Below, in pieces: positions 5,405-62,988 of a stretch of 64,000 bases of DNA. The notes under the pieces were generated by a model that was not told the origin of the DNA, did not search any database, and saw only the letters and a list, made by a program, of their open reading frames with translations. This DNA is from Candidatus Omnitrophota bacterium. GTDB lineage: Bacteria > Omnitrophota > Gorgyraeia > JABMRG01 > JAFGKX01. Where the stretch lies: positions 10,425 through 74,424 of the forward strand of contig JAZDPX010000032.1 of the NCBI GenBank assembly GCA_043797125.1, given 5' to 3'. Each line of letters opens with the position of its first letter. Position 1 is the first letter of the stretch. The translations under genes and the position numbers were made by a program.

Positions 5405-5430
5405 GTAGCGCAGGCTTAAGCCTGCGCTAC
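5405..5430. repeat. CTTAAG-centred perfect palindrome (type 1) GTAGCGCAGGCTTAAGCCTGCGCTAC
   Basis: Perfect 26-bp palindrome immediately 3' of a gene. Member of a family recurring at least 8 times in the window. Confidence 0.85.
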
Positions 5431-5489: not shown

Positions 5490-6989
5490 ATGCGCTTAGT
5501 AGTTTTTTTATTGCTAATTAGCAGTATCTGTTTTTGTCCACAACTTAGTTACGCGCAGCAAAAAGATAAATTAGAGCAGGCGATATCGCTTTATCAGCAC
5601 GAGAATTATGAAGAAGCGCTCCAGCTGCTTAAGCAATTGCGCCAGGAAAACCCGGATTCTTCAAATGTCGCCTATTACACGGGCCTTACGTATAAACGCC
5701 TGCAGGATTATCCTTCTGCAAGGCCTCATCTCGAGGCAGCCGTCACGCTTAAACCGCCAGTAAAGAACGCATATATAGAACTAATAGATCTGCTTTATCA
5801 ATCCGACCAAACCGAAGATGCAAAGAAATGGATAGAGCTAGCCAGAGAGAATGAAACTTCGCCGTCACAACTTGCATTTTTCAGCGGCCTTTTATCCTTG
5901 AAAGTAAAGGATTTTGAAAGCGCTATAAAATCATTCGACGAGGCGCAAGAGCTTGATCAGGCGCTTGCAGATACCATTAAATATTATAAGGCCCTTGTAT
6001 ACGCGCAGTCAAAGCAGCTTAATAAGGCAAGGGATATTTTCAGGGAAATTATCACCAAAGACCCAACCACAGATCTTGCGGCATTTGCGGACGAGTACAT
6101 GGATGTTCTCTCTATTCAGGAAAAGGCAACCAGGCCGTTTAAGGGCTACCTGGGGTATGCGCTTCAATATGATGATAATGTTATCCTGAAGCCCAATGAT
6201 AAATCGCTGTCAACAGACACAGCGGGCGAGGATGATTGGCGTTCAGTCTTCGCAGGGTACGCGGAATATAATTTAAAGCCGTCAGATTTTTTTGGTGTGA
6301 AAACAACATATTCTATTTCTGATTCGAAGCAGTTTGATTTAGGATTCTACGACATGGTAAGCCAGGAGGTGGGGCTGCAGCCAGCATTTTATTTAAAAAA
6401 TGCGGCGGTGAGTTTTCCTGTTCGTTGCGTATTTTCAAGGTTAAACGATAAAAGGTATGTCCAGACCCTTGATGTAAGCAACTTAAATAATATAAAGATT
6501 AATAAAAACCAGATGCTTCAGGTTATGTTTCAATATAACAGGGATGATTTCAGATGGATAGTTACGGTTGACAATGACAACAAGGACTCAAATGAATATA
6601 TCGGTTCGTTAGGCTGGTTTTTGTTTTTTACAAAAAACAACGAGGGCTTTATTAACCTGCGTTATGCCGTAAATTTCGATGACGCGAAAGGCAACAACTG
6701 GAAATATTTCGGCAACAAGCTGACCTTTACCAGCACCGTTCCTATCGGGAAAAAATTAAAATGGAGCTTAGTCGGCGATTATTACAGGCAGGATTATAGA
6801 AAAATAAACACTTCTTATGATAAAGAGCGCTATGATAATATCCTGACTGTGTCAAACCTCGTGTCTTATGAAATATTTAAAGATATAGATTTGCAAATCC
6901 AGCATACATTTATGGATGATTTGGCAAGCATAGGAGTTTATAAATATAACCGCAACATATATAGCTTAGGTCTAAAATACAGATTTTAG
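5490..6989 (+). CDS. TPR-repeat protein, putative outer-membrane beta-barrel (C-terminal Phe)
   Basis: RBS AAGGAG then ATG. Signal peptide MRLVVFLLLISSICFCPQLSYA. TPR-like N-terminal third. The C-terminal half has alternating hydrophobic beta-strand patterns and ends in ...LGLKYRF, a typical OMP C-terminus. Confidence 0.45.
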   Translation: MRLVVFLLLISSICFCPQLSYAQQKDKLEQAISLYQHENYEEALQLLKQLRQENPDSSNVAYYTGLTYKRLQDYPSARPHLEAAVTLKPPVKNAYIELIDLLYQSDQTEDAKKWIELARENETSPSQLAFFSGLLSLKVKDFESAIKSFDEAQELDQALADTIKYYKALVYAQSKQLNKARDIFREIITKDPTTDLAAFADEYMDVLSIQEKATRPFKGYLGYALQYDDNVILKPNDKSLSTDTAGEDDWRSVFAGYAEYNLKPSDFFGVKTTYSISDSKQFDLGFYDMVSQEVGLQPAFYLKNAAVSFPVRCVFSRLNDKRYVQTLDVSNLNNIKINKNQMLQVMFQYNRDDFRWIVTVDNDNKDSNEYIGSLGWFLFFTKNNEGFINLRYAVNFDDAKGNNWKYFGNKLTFTSTVPIGKKLKWSLVGDYYRQDYRKINTSYDKERYDNILTVSNLVSYEIFKDIDLQIQHTFMDDLASIGVYKYNRNIYSLGLKYRF

Positions 6990-7008: not shown

Positions 7009-8793
7009 ATGAAAAAGGCAGTAGTGTTTAGCGCCGGGATTATTCTCTTGATAATGGCAAACGCGTTATTTGCGCAAGAAGCAGCCCAAGTGGGTGTTGT
7101 AAGTTATCAGGAGGGCACATGCGATATCACGCATATCGAGCAAAGCCCGTTCTCTGCCCGGGAACAAGAACCCGTATATGCAGGTGACCGCTTACGGACA
7201 AAAAGTTATTCCAAGCTCGAAATAACTTTTAACGATAAAAGCGTTGTAAAGGCAGCGCCGGGCACTTGCCTGACCATAGCTGAATATTCCATCAATAATG
7301 ATAAAACAAGGCAAGGCGCGCGCATACAGCTTACAAGAGGCAAGATAGAAACAATTGTTTCCAAAACAAAAACTTCGGATACTTTTGTTATAGATACTCC
7401 CAACGCGAAAGGAAGCGTTAAAGGCTCTGATGTTTTTGTGTCTTATCAGGCAGGAAAAACAAACGTCCTTGTGAACAGCGGCACTATCCTTGTTTCGAAT
7501 TTTAGCCTGCCTAAGGATGTAATTGAAGTAACCGGGGGCGATTCCACCACAGTTAGCTTTAACGAAGCTCCGACGCAGGTTCGTCCTTTTTTTAATACCG
7601 AACAGAAATTATTCAGAAGGGATGTGGAACGCTCGCTTATTAAAAAATTCACCACCGCGGAGGGCGCGGTAAATATAAACGGCAAATTAGTTGAAGTTAT
7701 CGGCGACGTGAGTATTTTGAAAAAGGGAACAACGGAATGGAAAAAAGCTGTCAAAGGGGATATTGTTTCCGAAGGAGATAATCTTAAAACTGACAAGGAC
7801 GCAACAGCGGTAGTTTGCTTAGATAACGGTAATATGATTTACTGCCAGTCGGGCACGGAGCTCGGGGTTGAAACCTTGAACTATGACCAAAATAATTTTG
7901 AATCATCGAACGGCAGCCTTAAGTTTGTCGTAGGAGGAGGAGTGGCGCAGCAATCAACGGGTCAAGTAGCAACGGTTCAGGTAAGGACTCCGACCGCAGT
8001 TTGCGGCGTGCGAGGCACTGTAATGTATGTTAATACTCAAGAGGGTTCAACGCGGTCGTTTTTTGAAGGCGGCGACGGATTTATGACAAGCACTATTTCA
8101 GGTGAAACAGCAGATATTGTTGCCGGCCAAAATGCTACAATTGACGTTTCAGGAGTAATTTCCGCGCCTGTATATACATCGAATGAACAAAGGGAGGGCC
8201 TGGATCAGACATGGGTTATGCCGGTTGTTGACAACTATGCCACAAAAACAGAATCAAGCCCGATTAATACAGGGCCAATAATACAGCCTATGCAATTTTC
8301 AGATGCTACGCAAAAAGATCCTATGAAGATGCTGATAAAACCCTTTAATGTTTTTACATACGGCGATGTTATTAACCAAAACCCGCCGCCGCCGCCACCA
8401 CCGCCGCCAATTTACAGTATTAACCTTGTTAAAAATCCTGCAGGCTCCAACCCTGCCTTTACTACTGCAAATATGTTCTTGGATCTTTTTTCAGATCATA
8501 CGTTTAAGGCAGACGTTAATGGAACGTGGACTCCGGGTATGCCTGCAAACTGGACTTTGGTTTTTGAAAATCTTCCCGCTCAAAGCAGCAATAACGATGA
8601 TGTGAGCGTATTTAACGGAAATCAATGGTCGGATAATAGTGATGGGCCATGGAACGCAGATGTATCTGGTGTTGTGTTAGGCACTTACCCCGATAAGTCT
8701 CTTTCCGGAACAGCGAGCGGCACATACACAGGAAGCGGCGGGCCGCCGGATACATTTCAGGGGATTGCAGAAGGCACATGGAATGATATATAA
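7009..8793 (+). CDS. FecR-domain protein with signal peptide and a 10-proline tract
   Basis: Signal peptide MKKAVVFSAGIILLIMANALFA. FecR-like region (VKAAPGTCLTIAEYS...RIQLTRGKIE...GSDVFVSY). PPPPPPPPPP encoded at 8385-8411. Confidence 0.55.
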   Translation: MKKAVVFSAGIILLIMANALFAQEAAQVGVVSYQEGTCDITHIEQSPFSAREQEPVYAGDRLRTKSYSKLEITFNDKSVVKAAPGTCLTIAEYSINNDKTRQGARIQLTRGKIETIVSKTKTSDTFVIDTPNAKGSVKGSDVFVSYQAGKTNVLVNSGTILVSNFSLPKDVIEVTGGDSTTVSFNEAPTQVRPFFNTEQKLFRRDVERSLIKKFTTAEGAVNINGKLVEVIGDVSILKKGTTEWKKAVKGDIVSEGDNLKTDKDATAVVCLDNGNMIYCQSGTELGVETLNYDQNNFESSNGSLKFVVGGGVAQQSTGQVATVQVRTPTAVCGVRGTVMYVNTQEGSTRSFFEGGDGFMTSTISGETADIVAGQNATIDVSGVISAPVYTSNEQREGLDQTWVMPVVDNYATKTESSPINTGPIIQPMQFSDATQKDPMKMLIKPFNVFTYGDVINQNPPPPPPPPPIYSINLVKNPAGSNPAFTTANMFLDLFSDHTFKADVNGTWTPGMPANWTLVFENLPAQSSNNDDVSVFNGNQWSDNSDGPWNADVSGVVLGTYPDKSLSGTASGTYTGSGGPPDTFQGIAEGTWNDI

Positions 8794-9208
8794 TAATGTG
8801 AAAAGGTATGACATTTGCGCCATATTTTTGGCAATCGTCTGTATTATAATTTCAGGCTGCGCTGCCGCGACATTGCCGTATATAAGATATGAAAACAGCG
8901 AAAGGCTTAAAAAACTTTCACTCGGCATGACGAAGCAACAAGTGCTGGATATTATGGGCACAAAACCGATTAAGGCGCATAATAGTTTTGGCGAAGAGAT
9001 GGGGATTATTGATAATCCCTACAAAACTCAAGGCTTTGAAGTTGAAGGCAAAAATTACGAGGTTATATATTACTATACTCAAATTGTGCATTCCGACGGA
9101 ATAATTAATGAAGACGAATTAACGCCGCTTGTTTTTTGTGAAGATAAATTAACCGGCGCTGGCTGGGATTTTTACAGGGATATAACAAAACAACAGGGAG
9201 GAAACTAA
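8783..9208 (+). CDS. BamE/SmpA-OmlA family lipoprotein
   Basis: Lipobox-like IISGC after a hydrophobic segment. SLGMTKQQVLDIMGTKP matches the BamE core motif GMTxQQV...GTP. Confidence 0.5.
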   Translation: MIYNNVKRYDICAIFLAIVCIIISGCAAATLPYIRYENSERLKKLSLGMTKQQVLDIMGTKPIKAHNSFGEEMGIIDNPYKTQGFEVEGKNYEVIYYYTQIVHSDGIINEDELTPLVFCEDKLTGAGWDFYRDITKQQGGN

Positions 9209-9600: not shown

Positions 9601-9629
9601 AAAGGCCGCGGATATATAGCGGCCTTTTT
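9601..9629 (+). terminator. Rho-independent terminator after the response-regulator gene
   Basis: aaaGGCCGCggatatataGCGGCCttttt: a GC stem followed by a T-run, just before the moxR RBS AAGGAGG. Confidence 0.6.
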
Positions 9630-9643
9630 AAAAGGAGGCTTAT

Positions 9644-10639: not shown

Positions 10640-10644
10640 AGTTG

Positions 10645-10675
10645 GTCGATAGTCGATGGTCTATGGTCGATAGTC
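10645..10675. repeat. Tandem heptamer array (GTCGATR) of about 4.3 copies, intergenic between moxR and the DUF58 gene
   Basis: gtcgata gtcgatg gtctatg gtcgata gtc. The same heptamer (as ccatcga) recurs in-frame inside hisF at 45588-45615. Confidence 0.8.
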
Positions 10676-10679
10676 AAAA

Positions 10680-11559: not shown

Positions 11560-12117
11560 GTGTATGCGATTGCGTTTGCGGCTGATATAAAAGACATAAA
11601 ACCCCCGATACTTAGGCATCCCGCTTCTTTGCCTAAGAATTATTTTTTGCTTTTTGTTGTTGCCGCGCTGCTTTTGGCGGCAATACTCTTATTTATGAGA
11701 TATTTGCGAAAAAGAAAATTAAAGGCCCAAACGCAAAATTCTGTTCAGATAAAAAGGCCTGCGCACGAAATAGCTTACGAAGCATTGCAGGCCTTAAAAC
11801 TCAAGAACCTTCCGGGCCAAGGCAGGATAAAGGAGTATTATATCGAGCTTTCCTGGATTGCCAGGATTTATATAGAAAACCGTTTTAACATCAGGGCGCC
11901 GGAGATGACTACGGAGGAATTTCTGTTTTTCTTAAGAGAATCGGAAGTGTTATCTGGGGCGCATAAAAATTTGCTCAAGGAATTTTTGACGTTGTGCGAT
12001 ATTGTAAAATTCGCAAAATATGCCCCCTTGCAAAACCAGATAGATGACAGTTTCGATGCTGCCAAAAGATTAGTTGATGAAACAAAAGAGCAAAATATAG
12101 CTGTAGCGCAGGCTTAA
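11560..12117 (+). CDS. Membrane protein of the MoxR/Bat operon (DUF4381-like); GTG start
   Basis: Single TM segment (FLLFVVAALLLAAILLF) then a soluble domain. Position between the DUF58 gene and batA matches the conserved operon. The palindrome at 12103-12128 overlaps its stop codon, with TAA supplied by the central CTTAAG. Confidence 0.45.
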   Translation: MYAIAFAADIKDIKPPILRHPASLPKNYFLLFVVAALLLAAILLFMRYLRKRKLKAQTQNSVQIKRPAHEIAYEALQALKLKNLPGQGRIKEYYIELSWIARIYIENRFNIRAPEMTTEEFLFFLRESEVLSGAHKNLLKEFLTLCDIVKFAKYAPLQNQIDDSFDAAKRLVDETKEQNIAVAQA

Positions 12118-12128
12118 GCCTGCGCTAC
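12103..12128. repeat. CTTAAG-centred palindrome (type 1) overlapping a stop codon
   Basis: gtagcgcaggcttaagcctgcgctac. The stop TAA lies within the central cttaag. Confidence 0.85.
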
Positions 12129-14162: not shown

Positions 14163-14178
14163 GTAGCGCAGGCTTAAG
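14163..14178. repeat. Truncated left arm of the type-1 palindrome (GTAGCGCAGGCTTAAG), immediately upstream of a complete type-2 copy
   Basis: gtagcgcaggcttaag followed by taaatgta and then the full palindrome at 14187-14218. Confidence 0.7.
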
Positions 14179-14186
14179 TAAATGTA

Positions 14187-14218
14187 GCCGTAGCGGAGCC
14201 TTAAGGCTCCGCTACGGC
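14187..14218. repeat. CTTAAG-centred palindrome (type 2) GCCGTAGCGGAGCCTTAAGGCTCCGCTACGGC
   Basis: Perfect 32-bp palindrome. Arms differ from type 1 by paired, compensatory substitutions (CAGG/CCTG to GAGC/GCTC). Confidence 0.85.
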
Positions 14219-15105: not shown

Positions 15106-15137
15106 GATGTAGCGCAGGCTTAAGCCTGCGCTACATC
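15106..15137. repeat. CTTAAG-centred palindrome (type 1, extended to a 32-bp perfect palindrome)
   Basis: gatgtagcgcaggcttaagcctgcgctacatc. Confidence 0.85.
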
Positions 15138-17873: not shown

Positions 17874-17904
17874 GCAAAAAAATCCCCAGCGAGGATTTTT
17901 TTGC
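17874..17904. terminator. Bidirectional terminator-like hairpin
   Basis: gcaaaaaaatcc ccagcga ggatttttttgc: a perfect 12-bp stem with A/T runs on both sides. Confidence 0.5.
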
Positions 17905-17954: not shown

Positions 17955-18060
17955 GTCGTTCGGCTGGGGCCCCTCCGAAATTCACCTAAAGATAGTAGGT
18001 CAGGCTTAAGCCTGACCTACTATCCAAGGGTTCAGTTTCGGTGTCCCCAGCCTGCACTCC
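17955..18060. repeat. About 105-bp composite imperfect palindrome with a perfect 34-bp CTTAAG-centred core (type 3: GATAGTAGGTCAGGCTTAAGCCTGACCTACTATC, 17991-18024)
   Basis: The flanks cggctggggcccctccgaaattcacc and ggttcagtttcggtgtccccagcctg are imperfect inverted repeats around the perfect core. Lies within the 530-bp non-coding region upstream of the giant gene. Confidence 0.7.
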
Positions 18061-18311: not shown

Positions 18312-21300
18312 ATGTCAAAATTGACACAAAAATTTTTCACCATTATTATCTGCTTAGCCTTTATCGGGCAAAGCACGAATCTGGGTTACTTACCTTCACC
18401 AAACTCATCTAATACGCATACCTTGCGCGGAATGGCGTCGCAATTCGAAATATTACAGGAACTAGAAGAAGAAATGGCAAATGTAATGCCGAAATTTTAC
18501 ACAGCTGAAAATACCGGGCCCTATATGCCATATTATCAGTTGGACAGATCCTTTTTGCAGGGAAAGGTCGGATTTGCAAGGCTTGGATGCGATACGCCTA
18601 TGGATAAAAAGAAACAGAAGGAAATGAAGGATCTGGTTAAAGAGAAAAAAGATATGTCCCTTCTTCTTACCGATGTCAGCCGTATAGCAGACCCTGCCAG
18701 AATAGACTCCGCTATTGAAACTTTAATACACGTTATACGAAACGGCGGCAGGGTAGTGCTGCAGCCCGGCTGGATTGGCAGGCCCGAAGGTAAAATTAAG
18801 GCAGAATTAAGCGTAGTTCCGGTATTTTTGTATATAAGGGACAAGCTTGTAAAAGCAGGAGTAATAAAAGAAGATGAAATGATCCTCTGTCCCACGGATT
18901 TAGAAAAAAGAGAATGCAAAAGCAATTTCCAGAATGTAGGCGTAATTCGGGAGGCTATTAAAACCCATCTTAAAGATTTTAGGAAAGATGGCGAATCGGA
19001 TAAGGATTATAACAAAAGAAAGGGCAAGGTTAAGATATTGTGCCTTGAAAATCCAAGATTCGATAAAGAGTACGATAGCTTTAAATACAAAGATTTTAAG
19101 GATAGCAAAATAGAGGAACCTGCATTTATAAAGATGCTTAAAGAGGAGATTGCTTATGTTGTTTATGATGACTTCAATCATCAGCACAGGCCGCCGGCTG
19201 ATATATCCCTTCTGCCTGAATATGTACCCTCTTTTGTGGGAAAACGACTGGCTGAAGAAATCAGAATGGCTGATATATTATTGGAGATACTTAATAAGAG
19301 AGATAGAAAACCTTTTGCCTTATATCTTGGAGGAAAGAAAATAGAGACAAAGCCAGGCAAGATTTCCAAGGTAACGGTTGCGCTGGAATTAATCAGAAAC
19401 GATATGATGCGCAAGGATGACAGGCTTCTCATAGGCGGCGGTGTTGCGTATGCCTTTTTGGTTGCCCAGAAATATATAGATAGAATCATAACAGGCTTCG
19501 TAGATGACCCCGATAAAATAATCAGCCAGGAGGCTGTAAAGAAAATTACTCGCGGTGAAATAAGTGATGTTATCGGAGATTCATATATCTCGGATGACCC
19601 GTTTGATACAGAAGAGGGTTTAAAACAGGCGCATGAGAGAATTTATACTTTCGCGCAGCTTTTGGTTGAGGCAGCGAAAAGAGGCATTAAGGTCGGGCTG
19701 CCAATAGATCACAAAGTCAGAAACAACAAAACCGGGCAAATAAAAGAATGTACAGGTAATATTGAACGTGGCTGGTATGGTATTGACATTGGTTCCAAAA
19801 CTCGAGAAATGTATAACGGTGCCAGAAAAGGCATAAGCGCAGGTTTGATTGCAGGGCCTATGGGTATAGCTGATGACCCCGACCTTCCCGAAGGCACAGA
19901 AGGCACAGACATAGTCCTTAATGGCCTTGCGGAAGAGACGAGGGATAACGGCGCCTATACATTAAGCGGCGGAGGCGAGACAACGTTCAGGGCAATGGAG
20001 ATTAAAGTATTGCTTTCATGGCTTTCCTTAGGAGGCGGCGCTTTGCTGGAATATATTCAGAAAAATCGCGAGCTGCATGGCCTGCTTGCGCTAAAGAGAT
20101 CAGCGGAGAAATTTGCCGAGGGGAGGGTGTTAGCAGTTTCTGATGCGAAATCAGTGGAAGACACCATTCAGCAGATTAGGCCCTTATATGAGTCGCTGAA
20201 TAAGATAAGAATAGCCATGCCTTCCAATAAAATACAATATAAAATATGGGCGTTAATCAACTATTTCAGAAAAAAGATAGCTACGTTAACAGGCGCTCCG
20301 TGGAAGATACCTATTACTGCGGGGAACTGGAAAGAGAATATAGGAGAAGAAGAAGATGCAAAAAAATTGATTAAAGAAATGATATATGACCTTCGTTTCA
20401 TAGAAGGGGTTATACCTTTTATATGTCCAACAGCTGCGCATTTAAAAATTGCCGCAGAAGCCATAAAAGAAATGGAAGACAAGGGAATTATAGCAAAAGG
20501 AAAATTCACTCTCGGAGCCCAGGATGTGAGCGCCTATGGGGATAAAGAAATGAGCCCCTATTATAAGGATATAAGAGAGCAGTCAGGCAGAACGCATATA
20601 AAAACTATAATAAATGCAGGCAAAGGATATGTTAAATTTATTATTGTAGGCCATTCCGAGACATGCAGGACTCCTGTAGGGGTGGGCGACGAAGAGGGAG
20701 GCGCTGTGCCGGCCGGGCCAGCTTACGATCCTTTATGTGATTACGATGTGAATAACAAGGCGAAATTAACATTAAAATACGGCCTTACTCCAGATATATG
20801 CATAGGCGAAAGTTACGCGGAAAGAAACGCGGAAAAACTATATCCAACTGCTGACGCAAGAAAGGCCTTTCTTTTAAGACGCGGCATAACAGATGATACC
20901 GGAGAACCGGCATGGAAGCAGATTTTAAGACGCCAGATTCAGAGGAGGTTTTTAGGCCCGGATCCCGACGGTGCGATTACTACTAAGATTACCAAGGAAG
21001 ATATTTTACAAAAAGGCATCTATCTTTCCTACGAACCTATCCACTTTATAAGTTTTGGCAACGTAAACGCGGTCGTGGATATGAAGATTGTCGAAGAAGC
21101 CAACAGATTTATCACCTCGGAGATACTCAAGTTGTATGATAACGATAAAGACATAAAGGATAAGATACAGACCGAGGTAATAAAATACGGCGGCAGCGCC
21201 AATGAAACAAACGGCGAAGAGATAATCTCTACTATTTTCACCATAGGCACCATAGCGGGTGGAGCGAGCAGAACTTCAGCCAGATACCTGGGCCTTAACG

Positions 21301-24300
21301 TGGCATTCGGCGGCTGGATGATTCCCCAAAACGCAATTTTAGAAATCGAAGCGGAGCTTAAGCAATTGCGCAAGGCGCTTAAATCTACGCCGGCTGATTC
21401 AAAAGATGCGTCTTTGGCCTTAGAAGGGCAAATAAACCTGCTTAAGGAATTAAAACAGATAGTGCTTGAGATTATGAAAAAGCAAGGTATAGCTATACCG
21501 GCGCCAAGGATACCGACCGAGCAAGAGATGGCCATATATCTGCAGCTTAAAAAGGTAAAAGCTGTTACAGACGCTCAAGCGCAGTATGCCGGAGCTTATA
21601 TTCCAATAATTGATATGGTAAGACAATTTTATAAAAAGGCAGAAAAGACAGTAATAGATAAAAAGAAAGGGATAGAAGCGCTTGCTAAATATAAAAGTGT
21701 TTCATACAAAGACGTAGACAGCATAGAAGATGATAGCGTAGTTATATTCTGCAATCCGGAAAAAGATATGTTTACGGCGAGATTATGGTCATTCGCTTCG
21801 TACAAGAACGACTATTATAAAGATTATAAAGATTACACAATCTACATAATAGGCCATGCGGATGAGTTCGAGGCTGCGATAGCGGCGGAAGAGGCGAAAA
21901 AGCAGGCGAAAGAGGATGCGAAAAAGACTGAAACTGATACAACAAAAACGAACAACTATAATGCTACTGAAAGTGGCCATGTTGATAATATGCCTGATTT
22001 AACGGGCTTTGGCCGTAACGTGCAGATGCCATACACGCCTTCAGAGGCGGAGATGAACCTGTATATTGCGGCTGTAAAGGTACAAAACGTTACTAATGTA
22101 AAGGGCGTTCAAGTTAAAAGAGGCGATGCCTTTGCAGAAGTATATAGTGACGAGGCCACCAGGTTAGAGGGCGAGGCAAAAAGCTTTGTTAAGAAACAAG
22201 ACCTCAAGAAATACAAGCGTATTTCATATAAGAACAGAAAAGAGATACCTGACGGATCATTGGTTCTATTACCTGCTAAAGATGCAGGAAGGGACGGATA
22301 CAGGGTGACTATATGGTCTGCAAAGAAATACAATAAGGGGGTTTACTCTGGGGAGTTGTATAAATACTTCACCTCCTCCACCGCTTATATAATAGGCCAC
22401 AGAGATGACTTTGAAGTTCTCATAACGGAGTCGCCAAAAAAATATGCTGAGTTATTAACTATGCAGTCTGGATGGGGTGACAAGTGGACCGAGTATTACC
22501 ATATAGTAGCTATAGATAAAGCAATCGAGGACTATACAAAAGAGTTGAATACAAGGGAACGCGACTTGTTAACACCGGAAGGCATATACGAAGAGTATTG
22601 CAAGGTATTAGACGGGGCAGACAGCGCAGAGTTATACAAGATGGCATGGGAATTCGCGTTACGGAAAGATTTTAAGAGCTTATCAACAATATCTGATATA
22701 AAGCAAGTAGCGCCCGGGGACATAATTATTATTACCGATACCAATCCAAAACAGAAAAGTGTCATTAATGTAATTGTGTATGACCCGCAAGAGCATGACT
22801 TAATTGTATCTGCCGCGATTTCCGATTTTAAGAAAGCCGAGGTGCGCTACATAGGCAATAAAAATATGTTTGAAGATAAAATATCTGTAACAGCAAAAGA
22901 CGTATTAAAAGTATATCTGGAGTTTAATAAAAGCGTGACTAACAATGATAAGTTTTTTAAAACCCACGGCATCAGGAGTACAATTGTTGAAAAGTTTGTG
23001 CGTTCCGGCAATTTTAAAAAGCTGCCTGTTGTCAAAAATCAAGACTATCTGCACTCGGGGTCGCTGTTTATTGCCGCTAAAACACAATGGGATAAGCAAT
23101 TAAGCGGGGATGTTCGCCTTATATTTGTAAGCGCTGGCAAGAGACATGCAATAGAGTATGGAGACTGGTGGAGCGCTGACGGGTCAAAAATCAGCGAGTA
23201 TGAACTCCGCTGCATAGGGCCTATCGCGTTAATAAAGAATGAGTTGGGTGAAAAGGCTGTTTCTAAGTTGAAAGACGAGATCGGCTACATAAAAGTTGAG
23301 TTAAAGAGACGGGAAAAACTAAAGAAAGAGATGACGGGAAAAAAGACGACTGTTTCTTCCGAGAAATCCCTTACCTGGCAAATTCCAAAAATTACTCCGA
23401 AAGATATACAAACTGTGTATGATGAGTACGTCAAAAAATATGATAGATGGTACCCATGGTCTATAGACCCGAAACGCCCGGATAATATTCCCGGATATGG
23501 GCTATTTTTAGAAGAAAAGGATATTCGCCCCCTAATAAATCCAAAGGGCATATGGGCGCTACGCAAAGTTATAGATAAAATAGCGGAAGAGGCTAAGATA
23601 GAAGGGAAAAAAATTGACTTAACAACGCACCCTGACGACCGCTTGTATCACAACAAGCTAGTCGAAATATGCCGGTGGACGCGTGTCGATTTAGGTAATG
23701 CGCTGGATATGATGCTTAAGGAACCAAACCGTCTGGGCTATGTGCTTACAAGCAAAGAAGACGCAATATCAAATTGCTTATATATTTCCAGTCTTACTGC
23801 TTATGAGTCTCTCGACAGCGAACAACAGAAGCGTTACAGAGATGGACTAGGGGGATGGCGCAATAAAACATTGCATCAACTAGCTGATGAGCGTATTGCC
23901 ACAGGAGAGGAAATTGCCAGTATGGACCTAACGCAATTCAAGAAGTATAAGTTCCGTCAAATACTGGTACAAACAGAGGATAAAAAGACGAAAGAAAAGA
24001 CGCAAGGACCCAATTACGACGTTACCGAACTTGCAAAAGGAAAAGTTGATGAGTTTACACCAGGAGAAGGTGCCATTCCTGGTGTTATGGTTGGCGCAAA
24101 TAATGCCCTCCAGACGGCCTTAGATATTATTAATACACCATCTTCCACCACGGACGAGAAGCAAATTGAAGAGTATGCAAAATCATTAGATAAGGCTGAA
24201 GAATCGCTTGACAAGGCAATAAATGCAACAAATTTGAAGGATGATTTTAGCGGTTTTAAGGCAATTGCTGCAGAAGGCACAGGCCTGCCTACGGGCACCA

Positions 24301-24959
24301 TAGATGAAGCCAAGGAGCAGTGGCAATACAGCACGAACATTCTACACGCGGTAAAAGGAATAAGTGCTGCAACAAGAATAAGAGGCCTGGAAGACGCAAA
24401 TCAGGATATTATTAAGCCGTTTACCATGTTTATAGATAAAACAGCGCCTTACCAGAAGCAACTTGAATGGGCAAAAGAGCTGGGTGTGTTTGATGTTGCA
24501 AAAGAGAAGTTCGGATGCCAGACAATAGAATTCGATCCTGCAAAAGATAAGATAGACGAATTATTAAAGCAAGCAAACGTCAGCAAAGACATGGCAATGT
24601 TTATCTCGCAGCCTAAATATAAAGAAAAACTTGAAAGAGCTGAAATTAAATCCATAATTATAGACAAATTCGAGCAGGGTATGTTCATAGATTTTATGAC
24701 CCTGGCAGGTTTTTCAAAGGTAATGCTCTATCTGGCCAAATATGGTGAGAATCAGGAATATAAGGACATTAAATCCAATTTATGGAATCTTGCCCAGCTG
24801 TTGTATAGGTCCTTAACTGGCGAGAGTGCGGTGCTTGAAAAGGATAGTATAACCAGTTTTGCAATTAATTTACCCTTGCCTGAACCCAAGGCTTTACTAC
24901 CAGACGAGAAGTTGAGAGAGCTGATTAAGATATCCGCGGAAACAGCAGGCAAGGCGTAA
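18312..24959 (+). CDS. Giant (2215 aa) protein: N-terminal signal-peptide-like segment, complete phosphoglycerate kinase-like domain, complete triosephosphate isomerase-like domain, about 1200-aa K/E-rich C-terminal region of unknown function with internal repeats
   Basis: PGK motifs: ETLIHVIRNGGRVVLQPGWIGRPEG...SVVPVFLYIRDKL (cf. SHLGRP...LKDKL), KILCLENPRFDKE (LENxRF), AYVVYDDFNHQHRPPAD (DAFGTAHRA), FALYLGGKKIETK, LLIGGGVAYAFLVAQ (GGGMAxTFL), GIDIGSKT...GLIAGPMGIAD...GTEGTDIVLNG...TLSGGGETTFRAMEIK...LGGGALLEY. TIM motifs: ITAGNWKEN, FTLGAQDVSAYGDKEMSPYYKDIREQSG...FIIVGHSETCR, ICIGESYAERNAEK, SYEPIHFISFG, VIKYGGSANETNGEEI, IAGGASRTSA. The C-terminal half has a duplicated module (...TIYIIGHADEFE / ...AYIIGHRDDFE). 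Confidence 0.85.
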   Translation: MSKLTQKFFTIIICLAFIGQSTNLGYLPSPNSSNTHTLRGMASQFEILQELEEEMANVMPKFYTAENTGPYMPYYQLDRSFLQGKVGFARLGCDTPMDKKKQKEMKDLVKEKKDMSLLLTDVSRIADPARIDSAIETLIHVIRNGGRVVLQPGWIGRPEGKIKAELSVVPVFLYIRDKLVKAGVIKEDEMILCPTDLEKRECKSNFQNVGVIREAIKTHLKDFRKDGESDKDYNKRKGKVKILCLENPRFDKEYDSFKYKDFKDSKIEEPAFIKMLKEEIAYVVYDDFNHQHRPPADISLLPEYVPSFVGKRLAEEIRMADILLEILNKRDRKPFALYLGGKKIETKPGKISKVTVALELIRNDMMRKDDRLLIGGGVAYAFLVAQKYIDRIITGFVDDPDKIISQEAVKKITRGEISDVIGDSYISDDPFDTEEGLKQAHERIYTFAQLLVEAAKRGIKVGLPIDHKVRNNKTGQIKECTGNIERGWYGIDIGSKTREMYNGARKGISAGLIAGPMGIADDPDLPEGTEGTDIVLNGLAEETRDNGAYTLSGGGETTFRAMEIKVLLSWLSLGGGALLEYIQKNRELHGLLALKRSAEKFAEGRVLAVSDAKSVEDTIQQIRPLYESLNKIRIAMPSNKIQYKIWALINYFRKKIATLTGAPWKIPITAGNWKENIGEEEDAKKLIKEMIYDLRFIEGVIPFICPTAAHLKIAAEAIKEMEDKGIIAKGKFTLGAQDVSAYGDKEMSPYYKDIREQSGRTHIKTIINAGKGYVKFIIVGHSETCRTPVGVGDEEGGAVPAGPAYDPLCDYDVNNKAKLTLKYGLTPDICIGESYAERNAEKLYPTADARKAFLLRRGITDDTGEPAWKQILRRQIQRRFLGPDPDGAITTKITKEDILQKGIYLSYEPIHFISFGNVNAVVDMKIVEEANRFITSEILKLYDNDKDIKDKIQTEVIKYGGSANETNGEEIISTIFTIGTIAGGASRTSARYLGLNVAFGGWMIPQNAILEIEAELKQLRKALKSTPADSKDASLALEGQINLLKELKQIVLEIMKKQGIAIPAPRIPTEQEMAIYLQLKKVKAVTDAQAQYAGAYIPIIDMVRQFYKKAEKTVIDKKKGIEALAKYKSVSYKDVDSIEDDSVVIFCNPEKDMFTARLWSFASYKNDYYKDYKDYTIYIIGHADEFEAAIAAEEAKKQAKEDAKKTETDTTKTNNYNATESGHVDNMPDLTGFGRNVQMPYTPSEAEMNLYIAAVKVQNVTNVKGVQVKRGDAFAEVYSDEATRLEGEAKSFVKKQDLKKYKRISYKNRKEIPDGSLVLLPAKDAGRDGYRVTIWSAKKYNKGVYSGELYKYFTSSTAYIIGHRDDFEVLITESPKKYAELLTMQSGWGDKWTEYYHIVAIDKAIEDYTKELNTRERDLLTPEGIYEEYCKVLDGADSAELYKMAWEFALRKDFKSLSTISDIKQVAPGDIIIITDTNPKQKSVINVIVYDPQEHDLIVSAAISDFKKAEVRYIGNKNMFEDKISVTAKDVLKVYLEFNKSVTNNDKFFKTHGIRSTIVEKFVRSGNFKKLPVVKNQDYLHSGSLFIAAKTQWDKQLSGDVRLIFVSAGKRHAIEYGDWWSADGSKISEYELRCIGPIALIKNELGEKAVSKLKDEIGYIKVELKRREKLKKEMTGKKTTVSSEKSLTWQIPKITPKDIQTVYDEYVKKYDRWYPWSIDPKRPDNIPGYGLFLEEKDIRPLINPKGIWALRKVIDKIAEEAKIEGKKIDLTTHPDDRLYHNKLVEICRWTRVDLGNALDMMLKEPNRLGYVLTSKEDAISNCLYISSLTAYESLDSEQQKRYRDGLGGWRNKTLHQLADERIATGEEIASMDLTQFKKYKFRQILVQTEDKKTKEKTQGPNYDVTELAKGKVDEFTPGEGAIPGVMVGANNALQTALDIINTPSSTTDEKQIEEYAKSLDKAEESLDKAINATNLKDDFSGFKAIAAEGTGLPTGTIDEAKEQWQYSTNILHAVKGISAATRIRGLEDANQDIIKPFTMFIDKTAPYQKQLEWAKELGVFDVAKEKFGCQTIEFDPAKDKIDELLKQANVSKDMAMFISQPKYKEKLERAEIKSIIIDKFEQGMFIDFMTLAGFSKVMLYLAKYGENQEYKDIKSNLWNLAQLLYRSLTGESAVLEKDSITSFAINLPLPEPKALLPDEKLRELIKISAETAGKA

Positions 24960-24981
24960 GCCGGCGTAGGGCAAATGTAGG

Positions 24982-25060
24982 GGCGCCATTTATGGCGCCC
25001 TGATGTAGGGGGGGCTTGATTTATCAAGCCCACAAAAATAGGGTTCGATAAATCGAACCC
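24982..25060. promoter_or_regulatory. Three tandem perfect palindromes (18, 18 and 20 bp) with AT-rich 2-nt centres, between the giant gene and the next gene
   Basis: GGCGCCATttATGGCGCC (24982-24999), GGCTTGATttATCAAGCC (25013-25030), GGGTTCGATaaATCGAACCC (25041-25060). Each is preceded by (t)aggg. They share the central ATTTAT/ATAAAT core but have different arms. Confidence 0.55.
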
Positions 25061-25091
25061 CTACTGCTATTAAGCAAAATAAGGGGATTTC

Positions 25092-27815
25092 ATGCCGAGT
25101 TTACCTAAAAAAGCAGTAACTGTCCTTATTGCCGCTATTTTCATCGCGCAAAGCGCAAATCTGAATTACCTTTCCGCTCAAACCCAATTAAACACGAACG
25201 CATTGCGGGCCATGTCCATGGCTATTGAGCTTGATCCAAACAAGGCTATTATAGAAAAAGTAAAAGAATACTACGCTGAAAAAGGCATAAATGCCGATGA
25301 TTATTATGTTCCGCCCATAGTAGGCAAAGATATATTTGGAAAAGAGCTGACCATAAATAAAGGCGATATAGTTATCCATGCTAACCATCGCGCAGACAGA
25401 GTTTTTGAAAGCTTATTTTCCCTTACAGATCCTGATTTTAATAAAGACAGCCAAAGGTTTGATACCCCTGATTTGGGCTTGCATGTCGTCGCCTTTGCTA
25501 ACCACGATTCAAAATATTTCGCTAAGCATGGCATAGAAGCTGCTTTTACCATCAACGAAGAAGACTACAGGCCTTCATACGATTCCTTGGTGGATGTCTT
25601 GTATGAAAATAATATCAAGCAGGGGTATTTTACAGAAACAGATAAGGGTAAACATGTAAGTTATTTTTTAGCAGGCCAGCGTAATCTTCCTTATGAGGAT
25701 ATGGGGATACACGTGGAAATCGTTGCTTCTCAATCAGTATCTGATAAGGAAAAAGACCCTAATATGCAGTATAAGGAAATAACATCAAACGCCATTAACT
25801 TTTTACAGAATAACAGCTCTGATGAGCCTGCTTTTATTTTGGTAAATTATCCTGTCGATATCCAAGGCCACAATATTAAATGTAATAAGCAAAGAGCTAT
25901 TGATACAATATCAGCCTGCGATAGGGAAGCTGAAAAACTATATAATGCGGTAAAAGAAATGGGCGGTGTATGGATAGATACATCCGACCACGGCAACGTT
26001 GAAGAGTTAGCTGTTTTGGATAAAAATGGCATGCCTGTAACGGATAAATACGGCAATATCCCTTATGACCAGCATACTGCTAATTCTGTTCATTGCATAA
26101 TAGACGGTTTAGGAAATGTTAATCTTAAAGATGGCAAGGGCCTGGCCAATATCGCCCCCACCGTCCTTGAAATTTTAGGAATTGATAAGCCGAAGGATAT
26201 GGAAGAAAGCCTGCTTAAAGATTATAAATACAAAAAGATAAAAGGCCCTGTTGTGGTTGTTGTGCGCGACGGCTGGGGTAAAAGCAAGTTTACTAACCCT
26301 GAGGCATTGGAATGGAATGGATTAGAACTGGCTAAACCCGCCTTTTTTAACCGGCTTAAAGAAACCGCCCCCATTACTTGGATTAAGGCGCACGGAAGCG
26401 CTGTTGGCCTGCCTGATTATCAGGAGGGCGATTCTGATAACGGCCATCGCACCATAGGGGCAGGAAAGATACTGCCGACATTATATAAATTAATTATAGA
26501 CCAAATAGAATCAGGCGATTTTTATAAAAACGAAGTTCTGCGCAATATCTTTAAAAAAGCCATAGAAGAAAAGCACGATATATGCGTGATGGGCCTTGAT
26601 TCCGACGGAGGAATACACTGCGATCATAAGTATTTTCTTGCTTTAATAGAAATGGCAAGGTGTTTTGACATTAAAAAGCATGGCATAAAGCTGAAGCTTT
26701 TTCCGATTTTAGACGGAAGAGACAGGATGACCAGAATATATGAACAAAGCGGAGCTTACTATCTTGAGGATTTAGACAGAAAGATAAAAGAAGCGGGTCT
26801 TGCAGGCGCTGCATATATAGCTCAAACTGTCGGAAGATATATGGCAATGGACAGAGACGCTGTAAACGCTGATAAGGAAAGAGAACGCCTTGAGCAGAAA
26901 TTATCCGATGCCTTAAAACCGGATGATCCCGCGAATAAAGCTGACAATATTGTGAAATTAGTATCAGGTATTACAGCATCTGTGACTAAGGAAATTGCAA
27001 AAACAGAAAAAGAGCTGGCCAAGGCAAAAGACGCGCCAAAACAGGCATTTTTTAACAGCATAATTAATTGTTTGAATGCCATTGGGCAGCTTAATGAGAA
27101 ATTTAATCTTGAAAACGCGAAAGGCAAAAATAGGAATAATGAGAAAATAATTGAATTAGGAAAGAAAATAGCTGAAAACAAAAGACAGGAGTGGCTTATC
27201 CGCGCTAGCGCATTATGGCAGGAGCGTTACAAGGTAGCTTACGATGCCTGGGTTTATGGGAGCAAAGCTCCTCAAATGAAGTTCATGGAAGCCGCCGCGC
27301 ACAAAGATGAGCCTTTGAGCGAGACGGTTGATTATTCAGAACCGCAGCCTGCAGATAAAAAGGGTGTATGTGTACAATACAGCTATGTTCTGCATTTAAG
27401 AAATAAGTTAAAAAAACATTTTGATACAACAACAACTTCAACTCTAACAGCTGCGGAACTAACATTAGAGGAAATAATAGTGGAATGTGTTAAAAATGAA
27501 GTATTTTATGCTTCAAACCCATTATTTATTAAAGATTCTGAATCTATAAAAGCTGATGGGGTTTATTTTTCAAGCCGTGCATTTAGGAGTAGAAAGTCAA
27601 TCACGGAACAAAATAAGCTCTGCAAGGATATATATATTCTTACGGGTGCGGGAATGGCCGATGTTGAGTCAGTAGCAAGATGGCAGTACCTGTTTGTAGG
27701 TAACCTGGATGAGAAAATATTAAAAAATGGATTCTCTGATAATCCAGGCGCAGAGAAAGTCTATCCTAATGATTCGCAGAAGCTGCTGGACATCGCAATT
27801 CTTGCGGCTGCGTAA
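25092..27815 (+). CDS. 907-aa protein: signal-peptide-like N-terminus with motif shared with the giant protein, circularly permuted 2,3-bisphosphoglycerate-independent phosphoglycerate mutase (GpmI-like) domain, about 200-aa unknown C-terminus
   Basis: C-terminal-half GpmI motifs come first: DIVIHANHRADR (FMNFRADR), FILVNYPVDIQGHN (ICNYPNGDMVGHTG), WIDTSDHGNVEEL (ITADHGNAE), LANIAPTVLEILGI (DIAPTMLSLMG). N-terminal-half motifs come second: VVVVVRDGWG (VLVILDGYG), AHGSAVGLPDYQEGDSDNGHRTIGAGKI (GLPDRQMGNSEVGHxNLGAGR), VMGLDSDGGIHCDHKYF (GLLSAGGVHSH), ILDGRDR (FLDGRDT), GRYMAMDRD (GRYYAMDRD). Confidence 0.85.
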   Translation: MPSLPKKAVTVLIAAIFIAQSANLNYLSAQTQLNTNALRAMSMAIELDPNKAIIEKVKEYYAEKGINADDYYVPPIVGKDIFGKELTINKGDIVIHANHRADRVFESLFSLTDPDFNKDSQRFDTPDLGLHVVAFANHDSKYFAKHGIEAAFTINEEDYRPSYDSLVDVLYENNIKQGYFTETDKGKHVSYFLAGQRNLPYEDMGIHVEIVASQSVSDKEKDPNMQYKEITSNAINFLQNNSSDEPAFILVNYPVDIQGHNIKCNKQRAIDTISACDREAEKLYNAVKEMGGVWIDTSDHGNVEELAVLDKNGMPVTDKYGNIPYDQHTANSVHCIIDGLGNVNLKDGKGLANIAPTVLEILGIDKPKDMEESLLKDYKYKKIKGPVVVVVRDGWGKSKFTNPEALEWNGLELAKPAFFNRLKETAPITWIKAHGSAVGLPDYQEGDSDNGHRTIGAGKILPTLYKLIIDQIESGDFYKNEVLRNIFKKAIEEKHDICVMGLDSDGGIHCDHKYFLALIEMARCFDIKKHGIKLKLFPILDGRDRMTRIYEQSGAYYLEDLDRKIKEAGLAGAAYIAQTVGRYMAMDRDAVNADKERERLEQKLSDALKPDDPANKADNIVKLVSGITASVTKEIAKTEKELAKAKDAPKQAFFNSIINCLNAIGQLNEKFNLENAKGKNRNNEKIIELGKKIAENKRQEWLIRASALWQERYKVAYDAWVYGSKAPQMKFMEAAAHKDEPLSETVDYSEPQPADKKGVCVQYSYVLHLRNKLKKHFDTTTTSTLTAAELTLEEIIVECVKNEVFYASNPLFIKDSESIKADGVYFSSRAFRSRKSITEQNKLCKDIYILTGAGMADVESVARWQYLFVGNLDEKILKNGFSDNPGAEKVYPNDSQKLLDIAILAAA

Positions 27816-27826
27816 GAAGAGTGTAA

Positions 27827-27860
27827 AGCCGTAGCGGAGCCTTAAGGCTCCGCTACGGCT
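27827..27860. repeat. CTTAAG-centred palindrome (type 2, 34-bp perfect) plus an adjacent small hairpin cttgccggctggcaag; apparent insertion into a 3' motif that is uninterrupted at 62989-63015
   Basis: agccgtagcggagccttaaggctccgctacggct, flanked by gtgtaaag on the left and gcgttaagtgtaaagt on the right. Confidence 0.8.
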
Positions 27861-27973
27861 TGCCGGCTGGCAAGCGTTAAGTGTAAAGTAACAGCGTAGG
27901 ATATTTGATGTAAAGATAGCCGTAACTATTACAAATAACGTTGCGGCTATTTTAATATGAAGGATTTAATTTT

Positions 27974-32146: not shown

Positions 32147-32176
32147 CCGTAGCGGAGCCTTAAGGCTCCGCTACGG
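32147..32176. repeat. CTTAAG-centred palindrome (type 2)
   Basis: ccgtagcggagccttaaggctccgctacgg, directly after the polX stop. Confidence 0.85.
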
Positions 32177-44457: not shown

Positions 44458-44541
44458 GCGCAGATGATCACAGATTGAAAGACACAGATGATCACAGATA
44501 TCTGCGATCATCTTGTATCCTTTAATCTGTGATAATCTGCG
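44458..44541. repeat. 84-bp imperfect composite palindrome between purL and hisH (arms about 85% complementary), built from gatgatcacagat / atctgtgatcatc units
   Basis: gcgcagatgatcacagattgaaagacacagatgatcacagat | atctgcgatcatcttgtatcctttaatctgtgataatctgcg. Confidence 0.75.
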
Positions 44542-44562
44542 TTAAAAAAATTATTTTAAAAA

Positions 44563-45967: not shown

Positions 45968-46066
45968 AATTAAAAATTCAAAATGCAAAATGCAAAATTG
46001 CAATTTAAAATTCAAAAACTGGAGTTTTTTAATTTTTAATTGAAATTTTACATTTTTACTTTTTAA
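45968..46066. repeat. About 100-bp extremely AT-rich low-complexity spacer with inverted aaattcaaaat/attttgaattt ends; contains a 20-mer (aaaatgcaaaatgcaaaatt) identical to the batD start region
   Basis: aattaaaaattcaaaatgcaaaatgcaaaattgcaatttaaaattcaaaaactggagttttttaatttttaattgaaattttacatttttactttttaattttgaatttcaaaattt. Confidence 0.7.
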
Positions 46067-46101
46067 TTTTGAATTTCAAAATTTACGGAGTAAACTGGAC
46101 A

Positions 46102-49742: not shown

Positions 49743-49771
49743 CTTAGCAGGCCTTAAGGCCTGCTAAGTCA
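49740..49771. repeat. CTTAAG-centred palindrome (type 4, 32-bp perfect) TGACTTAGCAGGCCTTAAGGCCTGCTAAGTCA, beginning in the ANTAR gene stop codon
   Basis: Perfect palindrome. Arms differ again from types 1-3 by compensatory changes while retaining CTTAAG. Confidence 0.85.
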
Positions 49772-49793
49772 TTCCCGCGGAAGCGGGGATCTA

Positions 49794-53723: not shown

Positions 53724-53788
53724 GTAACAAGGCGCGATGTTGGCGCTTAAATTTTAACAAAGGCGTTCGAAAGAACGCCTTATTTTTT
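53724..53788 (+). ncRNA. Candidate about 65-nt small RNA (promoter to intrinsic terminator)
   Basis: Promoter at 53689-53717, followed within about 45 nt by GGCGTTCgaaaGAACGCCttatttttt (53762-53788). A second terminator lies at 53797-53838 (GGTGTTC...GAACACCtttttt). Confidence 0.3.
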
Positions 53789-62986: not shown

Positions 62987-62988
62987 AA

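Follow-up and report, generated by a model that had tools for sequence, protein, structure and literature searches.

The window, that is, the whole stretch of 64,000 nucleotides of Omnitrophota DNA analysed here, carries two very long, co-oriented open reading frames (ORFs) separated by a short intercistronic spacer. The upstream gene (positions 18312 to 24959, + strand) encodes a protein of 2215 amino acids whose N-terminal third contains PGK and TIM Pfam domains, and the downstream gene (25092 to 27815, + strand) encodes an iPGM-like protein of 907 amino acids with iPGM_N and Metalloenzyme domains; the gene names PGK-TIM and iPGM, given in a first-pass annotation of this DNA, are therefore right at the level of domains. 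A ribosome-binding site, AAGGGGA, lies 5 nt before the start codon of the iPGM ORF. The spacer between the two ORFs comprises 132 nt (24960 to 25091) and consists, in this order, of GCCGGC, GTAGGGCAAAT, GTAGGGGCGCCATTTATGGCGCCC, TGAT, GTAGGGGGGGCTTGATTTATCAAGCCC, ACAAAAATA, GGGTTCGATAAATCGAACCCCTAC and TGCTATTAAGCAAAATAAGGGGATTTC; written with a longer first block, the same interval is GCCGGCGTAGGGCAAAT, GTAGGGGCGCCATTTATGGCGCCC, TGAT, GTAGGGGGGGCTTGATTTATCAAGCCC, ACAAAAATA, GGGTTCGATAAATCGAACCCCTAC and a continuation starting with TGC.

An exhaustive palindrome scan recovered three perfect palindromes within this spacer, each with arms of 9 bp and a 2-nt centre, at positions 24981 to 25000, 25012 to 25031 and 25041 to 25060. 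The 64-kb window contains 13 such 9+2+9 palindromes, whereas first-order Markov simulations (n = 200) gave 0.36 on average and never more than 2, and it is evident that three of them within 80 bp lie far above the chance level. The palindromes noticed in the first-pass annotation are thus real, with the correction that the arms, described there as 8 to 9 bp long, extend one base further in each arm of the first two palindromes, to 9 bp. The prefix (T)AGGG, said to precede each palindrome, is present as well and turns out to belong to a longer GTAG tag, which is found on the + strand at 24977 to 24980 and at 25005 to 25008 and, as CTAC on the + strand and hence GTAG on the - strand, at 25061 to 25064. 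In each unit, an unpaired GTAG foot precedes a stem of three basal G-C pairs and four variable pairs, with A-TTTA-T at the top. Because of the tag the units are asymmetric, and along the spacer their orientation is direct, direct and inverted.

Hairpin formation by these units had been doubted on the grounds that loops of 2 nt are too short. DNA and RNA folding contradict this, as both predict 8-bp stems with 4-nt loops; the central A-T pair opens and the 2-nt centre of the palindrome is therefore no obstacle to a hairpin. Element 1 (24977 to 25000, + strand) starts 17 nt past the stop codon of the PGK-TIM ORF and combines the tag at 24977 to 24980 with the 8-bp stem GGGCGCCA/TGGCGCCC and a TTTA loop (GTAGGGGCGCCATTTATGGCGCCC); its RNA hairpin has a predicted free energy of -17.8 kcal/mol. 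Element 2 (25005 to 25031, + strand), with a predicted RNA hairpin of -13.4 kcal/mol, has an extra GGG at 25009 to 25011 between the tag at 25005 to 25008 and the 8-bp stem GGGCTTGA/TCAAGCCC, which again carries a TTTA loop. Its GTAG consequently sits 3 nt off the stem, whereas in elements 1 and 3 the tag is placed directly at the foot of the stem, and as a published predictor of REPs accepts tags 0 to 2 nt from the hairpin (PMC6006769), element 2 falls slightly outside that range. Element 3 (25041 to 25064, - strand) is inverted; followed along the - strand from 25064 to 25041, its sequence is GTAGGGGTTCGATTTATCGAACCC. A gap of 4 nt separates elements 1 and 2, which are arranged head to tail, and elements 2 and 3 form a head-to-head dimer with the GTAG tags outside and a 9-bp spacer, ACAAAAATA. 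The cluster is a head-tail pair combined with a head-head dimer, i.e. a REP trimer in published terms. In RNA folding, a single long hairpin resembling a REPIN can alternatively form between elements 2 and 3. Just upstream of element 1, at 24966 to 24976 on the + strand, GTAGGGCAAAT comprises only a tag and the start of a stem and is possibly, judging from its sequence, what remains of a fourth REP. A similar half copy lies at 14163 to 14183, where GTAGCGCAGGCTTAAG precedes TAAAT-GTAG.

The flanking genes are co-oriented, and the trimer occupies the 3' untranslated or intercistronic region of the PGK-TIM ORF. None of the three hairpins is followed by a U-tract on the + strand, the respective tails being TGATGTAG, ACAAAAAT and CTACTGCT, and a terminator scan listed no + strand terminator in the spacer; only element 3 has a T-rich tail, on the - strand, where no gene runs. 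Ordinary terminators made of a hairpin and a T-run do occur elsewhere in the window, at 9603 to 9632, 17874 to 17904 and 53760 to 53787. An intrinsic (Rho-independent) terminator was considered and rejected on anatomical grounds, the hairpins lacking a U-tract on the + strand. To that extent, the proposal made in the first-pass annotation that the palindromes are DNA cruciform or processing sites rather than a terminator agrees with our data. No promoter-like site was found within the spacer. Given the co-oriented genes, the lack of an intrinsic terminator or evident promoter between them and the ribosome-binding site in front of the iPGM ORF, the trimer is probably transcribed within a PGK-TIM/iPGM message. 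In such a transcript the three units would fold into RNA hairpins of -12 to -18 kcal/mol each, and the region folds better than 200 of 200 shuffled versions (z = -4.05).

This folding and the site between co-oriented genes might suggest that the palindromes are immobile RNA elements of the host that merely resemble REPs (terminators without a U-tract, RNase sites or 3' stabilisers) and that set the ratio of PGK-TIM to iPGM. Such a role has a precedent in an E. coli REP cluster in a similar position, which acts as a stabiliser of the upstream transcript and as a partial Rho-dependent terminator or attenuator (bioRxiv 10.64898/2026.03.23.713779). We regard host RNA elements as an unlikely origin of the trimer. 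They would account for an effect and not for where the units come from, and the missing + strand U-tract stands against them in a genome that uses hairpins with T-runs as terminators elsewhere. In a relative whose iPGM is about 56% identical (locus L001), the genes of the glycolytic cluster are tightly packed and no such palindromes are present, which argues against a conserved regulatory device specific for this locus, whether it acts as RNA or as duplex DNA.

To place the units in a wider context, the pattern GTAGGGG-N4-ATTTAT-N4-CCC (GTAGGGGNNNNATTTATNNNNCCC) was used as a search query. In the viral contigs of IMG/VR it gave 60 matches, in 32 of which the two N4 blocks were perfectly complementary. 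In species-representative genomes of GTDB at least 149 matches in at least 120 loci were obtained; among the 149 genome matches listed, the N4 blocks were perfectly complementary in 115 and had a single mismatch in 26, whereas perfect complementarity is expected by chance in 1 of 256. The hosts among the matches listed include Omnitrophota (at least 6 MAGs), Chloroflexota/Ktedonobacteria, Prevotella, Clostridia, Aminicenantes, Atribacterota, WOR-3, Elusimicrobia, CPR bacteria (Roizmanbacteria, Moranbacteria), Planctomycetes, Armatimonadota and several proteobacterial classes. Comparison of the collected loci with the window by blastn revealed no overlap, the source genome of the window not being among these loci. 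Several of the scanned genomes contain multiple dispersed copies, for instance one Prevotella MAG with copies on at least 5 contigs and the genomes represented by loci L098, L035 and L120. A tag-free control pattern, GGGGNNNGATTTATCNNNCCCC, retrieved from the viral contigs mostly unrelated hairpins, several of them terminator-like with T-runs; this control says little about the tag, as members of the family rarely have the fourth C. At gathering thresholds, no Rfam family matched anywhere in the window, and neither the exact sequences nor the peptides translated from them turned up in a literature search.

All three units of the spacer have counterparts in this family. More than 25 different N4 stems were found, the commonest among the matches listed being CTTG, CGCG, CGCA, CGTG, TTTG and TTCG. 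The stem of element 2, CTTG, is the joint commonest, with at least 21 copies in the genome scan, and is also present in the Omnitrophota loci L097 and L119. TTCG, the stem of element 3, is likewise among the commonest, and the complete 24-mer of this element recurs identically in four loci (L006, L013, L016 and L101). The stem of element 1, CGCC, is found again in combination with an ATTCAT loop in the Omnitrophota locus L059. Close inverted pairs are numerous in the genome scan, and head-head dimers with 2-nt spacers are present in two Omnitrophota loci (L059 and L097); in other Omnitrophota genomes the halves of head-head dimers carry different stems, as they do in the window. The loci collected in the genome scan also contain 38 hairpins with an ATTCAT loop, for which the pattern did not select, and 27 of the 38 carry GTAG followed by GGG on the strand of the ATTCAT loop. 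They thus provide a confirmation of the tag, of the GGG at the base of the stem and of the orientation that is unbiased by the pattern. The base that follows CCC is a C in only 18 of 251 instances, and the last G of the tag therefore stays unpaired.

For an analysis of covariation, 67 distinct members of the family were aligned on the proposed 8-bp helix. In this alignment, 95% of the helix cells are paired and all four variable pairs show compensatory changes. Double changes were counted in 111 cells, as compared to 33.5 ± 4.9 after shuffling and to 4 to 20 when the partner column was slid. Arms that vary and yet are compensated indicate that the hairpin is maintained and not a sequence that is recognised in double-stranded DNA. 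Wobble G-T pairs, which also occur in the family, are distributed over the GTAG strand and the other strand without bias (32 versus 21); these counts do not decide between RNA and either DNA strand as the selected form. The presence of wobble pairs would suit host RNA elements and their lack of strand bias counts against them. Elements of the family are biased towards extragenic positions, as only 30% of them are spanned by an open frame of at least 150 codons, as compared to 85% of random windows from the same loci.

These results bear directly on the first-pass proposal that the palindromes are three distinct operators for dimeric proteins. Under this reading, each palindrome would be bound as duplex DNA by a different homodimeric regulator of iPGM or of genes downstream of it, and the perfect two-fold symmetry, the 9-bp arms, the common AT-rich core and the position just upstream of a gene are features that such sites would have. 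Nevertheless, an operator is expected to have a conserved half-site, and instead the arms covary freely through more than 25 different N4 stems whereas the asymmetric GTAG tag, the G-C base and the loop are the conserved parts. Identical units are encountered at unrelated loci in many phyla, the spacer is devoid of a promoter-like site, and the equivalent locus of the relative mentioned above lacks the palindromes. Moreover, the units lie 17 to 81 nt after the upstream stop codon and so are placed like the eight double-foot REPs of the window described below. The operator proposal is therefore abandoned here as very improbable.

The ATTTAT subtype is confined to the spacer locus within the 64-kb window, and a related second family is represented there by eight copies. 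Its palindromes are perfect and longer, have CTTAAG in the middle and are bordered by GTAG on one side and by CTAC on the opposite side; the palindrome scan located them at 5405, 12103, 14187, 15106, 17991, 27826, 32147 and 49738. With respect to the stop codon of the upstream gene, two of the eight copies overlap it, five start 8 to 29 nt after it and one starts 211 nt after it; the copy at 27826 to 27861 follows the stop codon of the iPGM ORF by 15 nt. By their sequence, these GTAG...CTTAAG...CTAC palindromes correspond to the 'double foot' REP type of TnpAREP subclass 2.4. The prominence of the tag in this DNA is also evident from a ranking of all 256 tetranucleotides in front of perfect hairpins of at least 7 bp in the window, in which GTAG comes first (18 cases).

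A connection of the family with RAYT transposases was revealed by loci from other genomes. In a locus from Chloroflexia (L098), inverted hairpin pairs at 5209 to 5267 and at 5803 to 5881 bracket a gene for a Y1 transposase of 163 amino acids, which is frameshifted in the assembly and has the motifs PNHVH (HuH) and WQRNYHEH. The protein scores 25.3 bits with Pfam Y1_Tnp PF01797 (cut-off 23). Among the NCBIfam models it matches REP_Tyr_transpos best, with 60.7 bits, which is below the equivalog cut-off of 80 bits. Homologues of this transposase were detected by tblastn next to hairpins in four further loci (L089, L095, L101 and L165). In one of them, from Omnitrophota (L101), the RAYT gene is immediately adjoined at its 5' end, corresponding to the N-terminus of the protein, by a hairpin with the sequence of element 3. 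In another locus (L011), no RAYT was found between the inverted hairpin pairs, which enclose an unrelated ORF of 606 amino acids. Within the 64-kb window itself, neither tblastn nor an HMM search of the six-frame translation detected a RAYT gene.

A protein search with the RAYT of L101 yielded at least 7959 homologues, many of which have been named 'REP element-mobilizing transposase RayT' by JGI. Among the best 120 of these at least 7959 homologues, 68 contain in-frame peptides derived from the hairpins, of the forms VG..F[IM].P and/or G.[IM][NDK]..P[TY]. The peptides, such as VGAQFIAP, VGAPFMAP, GAMNRAPT and GAINRAPT, typically start about 9 residues after the PNH.H motif and form part of a variable insert that separates the HuH motif from the next helix; VGAPFMAP is the in-frame translation of element 1. 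An in-frame insertion of REPs in tnpAREP has been reported for subclass 2.4, whose proteins have the motifs NH[IFV]H, WQ and YIxNNP and are scattered over many phyla (subclass 2.4 equals group 4 of Bertels; Quentin et al. 2018, PMC6006769). The same three motifs are found in our alignment of RAYTs. Of the 80 best metagenomic RAYT loci obtained with this alignment, 70 have a perfect GTAG-tagged hairpin in the gene itself or no more than 300 bp away, and the density of such hairpins in these 80 loci is 2.13 per kb near the gene versus 0.17 per kb further off. The strict ATT[TC]AT signature is limited to 3 of these 80 loci, most of the remainder having other GTAGGGG subtypes, and as a result the pairing of this particular REP subtype with a clade of RAYTs is a tentative one. 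The presence of other GTAGGGG subtypes near RAYT genes fits with co-evolving pairs of REPs and RAYTs.

Short imperfect palindromes are used by other mobile or repetitive elements as well, and the units in the spacer might be thought to be ends or remnants of one of these, namely subterminal hairpins of IS200/IS605, attC sites of integrons, a MITE or a degenerate CRISPR array; the TnpA of IS200/IS605 even represents a sister family of RAYT. Several observations make such an origin hardly probable. In L098 and L101 the hairpins flank the transposase genes in the manner of a REPtron, and the cluster in the window has no transposase, integrase or cas gene next to it. Units of 24 to 27 bp with a GTAG tag differ from the R and L boxes of attC, the irregular spacing and mixed orientation are unlike those of a CRISPR array, and the lack of any Rfam match in the window also speaks against this group of elements. 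For host RNA elements, too, the dispersal of the same tagged units over many phyla and their ties to RAYT genes are difficult to accommodate.

We conclude, with a rough probability of 0.84, that the trimer consists of canonical GTAG-tagged REPs of the type associated with RAYT/TnpAREP subclass 2.4 (Bertels group 4), that is, of hairpins presumably spread by a RAYT and probably transcribed. The features by which the GTAG-tagged superfamily and subclass 2.4 are described in the accounts summarised below are all seen here, including the accompanying double-foot family, and the trimer is thus of a described kind. The assignment to subclass 2.4 is a putative one, made by motifs and REP features and not by phylogeny. 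REPs are considered non-autonomous elements, and in other REP/RAYT pairs the folded single-stranded DNA hairpin together with its GTAG is bound and cleaved by RAYT/TnpAREP (PMC3479197, PMC8266576). By analogy, the hairpins of the spacer would form on single-stranded DNA, for example on the lagging-strand template, and a Y1 HuH transposase (RAYT) encoded elsewhere in the genome would recognise the GTAG tag and the shape of the hairpin. Cleavage and rejoining of units by this enzyme would lead to their spread and to their upkeep in intergenic DNA just downstream of genes. We infer that elements 1 to 3 would be bound and cleaved by such a RAYT and that they owe their mobilisation in the source genome to it. 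The first-pass alternative of cruciform or processing sites is closer to the truth than that of operators, on the basis of published RAYT substrates: as a reading of DNA processing it survives in part, as REPs are single-stranded DNA substrates of RAYT and, in E. coli, act in 3'-UTRs as stabilisers and attenuators.

With regard to the flanking genes, the RNA hairpins would shield the PGK-TIM message from 3' exonucleases and might partly attenuate read-through into the iPGM gene. By analogy with the E. coli cluster mentioned above, stabilisation of the upstream message combined with partial attenuation of read-through would be the most likely local side-effect of the trimer. Differential control of the two flanking genes is plausible on the same grounds; the first-pass annotation had suggested such control, for downstream genes, from the position of the palindromes.

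A more far-reaching and rather doubtful extension of this conclusion would be that GTAGGGG-N4-ATT[T/C]AT-N4-CCC represents one single REP/RAYT lineage that spreads horizontally through more than 15 phyla, among them the ultra-small, host-dependent Omnitrophota and CPR bacteria, and that a small set of stem 'alleles' such as CTTG, CGCG, TTCG, CGCC and others is shared and reused within it. In this speculative scheme, the unequal stems of the two halves of a dimer would be functional, for instance by counteracting cruciform extrusion or by marking left and right ends for the transposase, and the trimer in the window would have been co-opted, uncoupling the expression of the two giant glycolytic enzymes.

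For the annotation of this DNA, the identification as REPs removes a false lead, in that the palindromes would be selfish or domesticated repeat DNA and not a switch of glycolysis made of three operators. The same subtype of REP, down to identical 24-mers, is common to very distant phyla, which is useful for annotation. REP units give rise to spurious short ORFs and to in-frame peptide inserts, of which VGAQFIAP and GAMNRAPT are examples, and they interrupt the assembly of metagenomes, with a length of only 1 to 3 kb for many of the RAYT contigs in this analysis. Should the upstream message indeed be stabilised by the trimer, this would be a case of REP-mediated tuning inside an operon of a bacterium that does not belong to the Proteobacteria. 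Our literature search found no paper that links REPs with Omnitrophota, and the only new element of the present case is the host: canonical and double-foot GTAG REPs are documented here in Omnitrophota.

The systems most similar to the one in the window are the GTAG-tagged REPs, including the SMAG elements of Stenotrophomonas maltophilia. In the account given by Di Nocera, De Gregorio and Rocco (2013, PMC3733652), this superfamily is characterised by an unpaired GTAG end, a stem of about 5 to 13 bp and a short loop of 2 to 4 nt, and its sub-families differ from each other by complementary changes in the stem. Head-head, tail-tail and head-tail dimers are described there, as are trimers, which consist of a singleton beside a dimer. 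According to the same account, the elements are located downstream of ORFs, between co-oriented or convergent genes, with some of them being intragenic, and are associated with RAYTs. The units of the window have the tag, the GC-rich stem, the loop, the organisation in dimers and trimers and the placement in common with these elements, and the family to which they belong shares the complementary stem changes, the occasional copies inside genes and the ties to RAYTs. The 24 families treated in that survey derive mainly from Proteobacteria, Cyanobacteria, the PVC group and one Chloroflexi genome, with Omnitrophota not covered, and the likeness stated here is one of described features.

Within the REPs, those of TnpAREP subclass 2.4 or RAYT group 4 (PMC6006769; Bertels et al. 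2017, PMC5581495) correspond best to the present units. Subclass 2.4 is described as possessing canonical REPs with three consecutive G-C pairs at the base of the stem and a 'double foot' type, GT[AG]G ... C[TC]AC (PMC6006769); the window shares with it the GGG/CCC base, the coexistence with a double-foot type and the scatter over phyla. The published sample of subclass 2.4 is dominated by Cyanobacteria and Bacteroidetes, whereas the window stems from Omnitrophota. The better known REPs and BIMEs of E. coli and the REPINs of Pseudomonas, which belong to RAYT groups 2 and 3, resemble the units of the window in having GTAG and a hairpin, in forming inverted doublets and in occurring in 3' UTRs. 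For these systems, functions as mRNA stabilisers and transcription attenuators are documented, and TnpAREP binds the folded single-stranded DNA hairpin with its GTAG. However, the REPs of E. coli measure about 35 nt, have imperfect stems with bulges and, in BIMEs, bind IHF, gyrase and Pol I, whereas the units described here are short perfect hairpins and, unlike in the BIMEs of E. coli and in REPINs, the two halves of the dimer carry different stems. In this respect, the perfect hairpins of the window are nearer to the 'perfect palindrome' group of S. maltophilia and Marinomonas (PMC8266576).

Both in the window and at the glycolytic locus of a relative (L001), the glycolytic enzymes are of giant size. 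Flanking the trimer of repetitive extragenic palindromes (REPs), PGK-TIM (ORF 18312-24959) has 2215 aa, with its enzyme domains confined to the first ~850 residues, and iPGM (ORF 25092-27815) has 907 aa; at L001 (1-12766), PGK-TIM reaches at least 1536 aa, enolase 1253 aa, and an ORF without annotation 1751 aa. The N-terminus of the window iPGM, MPSLPKKAVTVLIAAIFIAQSANL, resembles a signal peptide or a membrane-anchoring segment, an odd start for a glycolytic enzyme.

In other Omnitrophota genomes, head-head REP dimers were found at L059 (3011-3060 and 6654-6703) and L097 (4042-4091), with a fixed 2-nt GC spacer. As the stems differ between the halves in every case and the loops often differ too (ATTCAT vs ATTTAT), there is a hint that dimer partners are heterologous as a rule.

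Members of the trimer-type REP family often turn up on contigs classified as viral, where 49 loci hold 60 matches. On one IMG/VR contig (L011), GTAGGGGACGGATTTATCCGTCCC hairpins form two inverted pairs, at 108-260 and 2297-2449, and the ORF between them encodes not a transposase but a proline/glutamate-rich, lipoprotein-like protein of 606 aa. Many public-metagenome contigs bearing the RAYT transposase are just 1-3 kb long, as seen in the table of homologue matches and at the metagenome RAYT loci, which suggests that REP/RAYT regions systematically break short-read assemblies.

In-frame translations of GTAG hairpins are present in 68 of the best 120 (P0094-P0213) of at least 7959 RAYT homologues, as peptides such as VGAQFIAP, VGAPFMAP ... 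GAMNRAPT, GAINRAPT, which usually begin ~9 residues past the HuH motif; the loci concerned are L089 (4828-4934), L098 from Chloroflexia and L101 from Omnitrophota. Such translation is already known and was described as unique to subclass 2.4 (PMC6006769); here it was seen also in a CPR (Roizmanbacteria) genome.

Within the window, a GTAG-tagged 7-bp hairpin, GTAGGGATTATCAATAATCCC, lies on the minus strand at 9002-9022 inside a predicted coding ORF (8765-9208); it may be a REP located within a gene, or the resemblance may be due to chance. Besides the REP families, several intergenic spacers (10640-10679, 44458-44562, 45968-46068, ~56480-56620, 27816-27973 and 62987-63035) carry other short iterated motifs, namely GTCGATAGTCGATGGTCTATGGTCGATAGTC, repeated GATGATCACAGAT / ATCTGTGAT, runs of AAAATGCAAAAT, repeated TATCAGA / TCTGATA and repeated GTGTAAAG.

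A second palindrome family of the window comprises eight perfect, longer copies centred on CTTAAG and ending in GTAG and CTAC (5405-5430, 12103-12128, 14187-14218, 15106-15137, 17991-18024, 27826-27861, 32147-32176 and 49738-49773); at 14163-14178 only half of such a palindrome, GTAGCGCAGGCTTAAG, is present. Two of the eight overlap the upstream stop codon, five start 8-29 nt past it and one 211 nt past it. The copies fall into three sequence variants, between which the stems covary, and the family matches the 'double foot' type of REP known from TnpAREP subclass 2.4.
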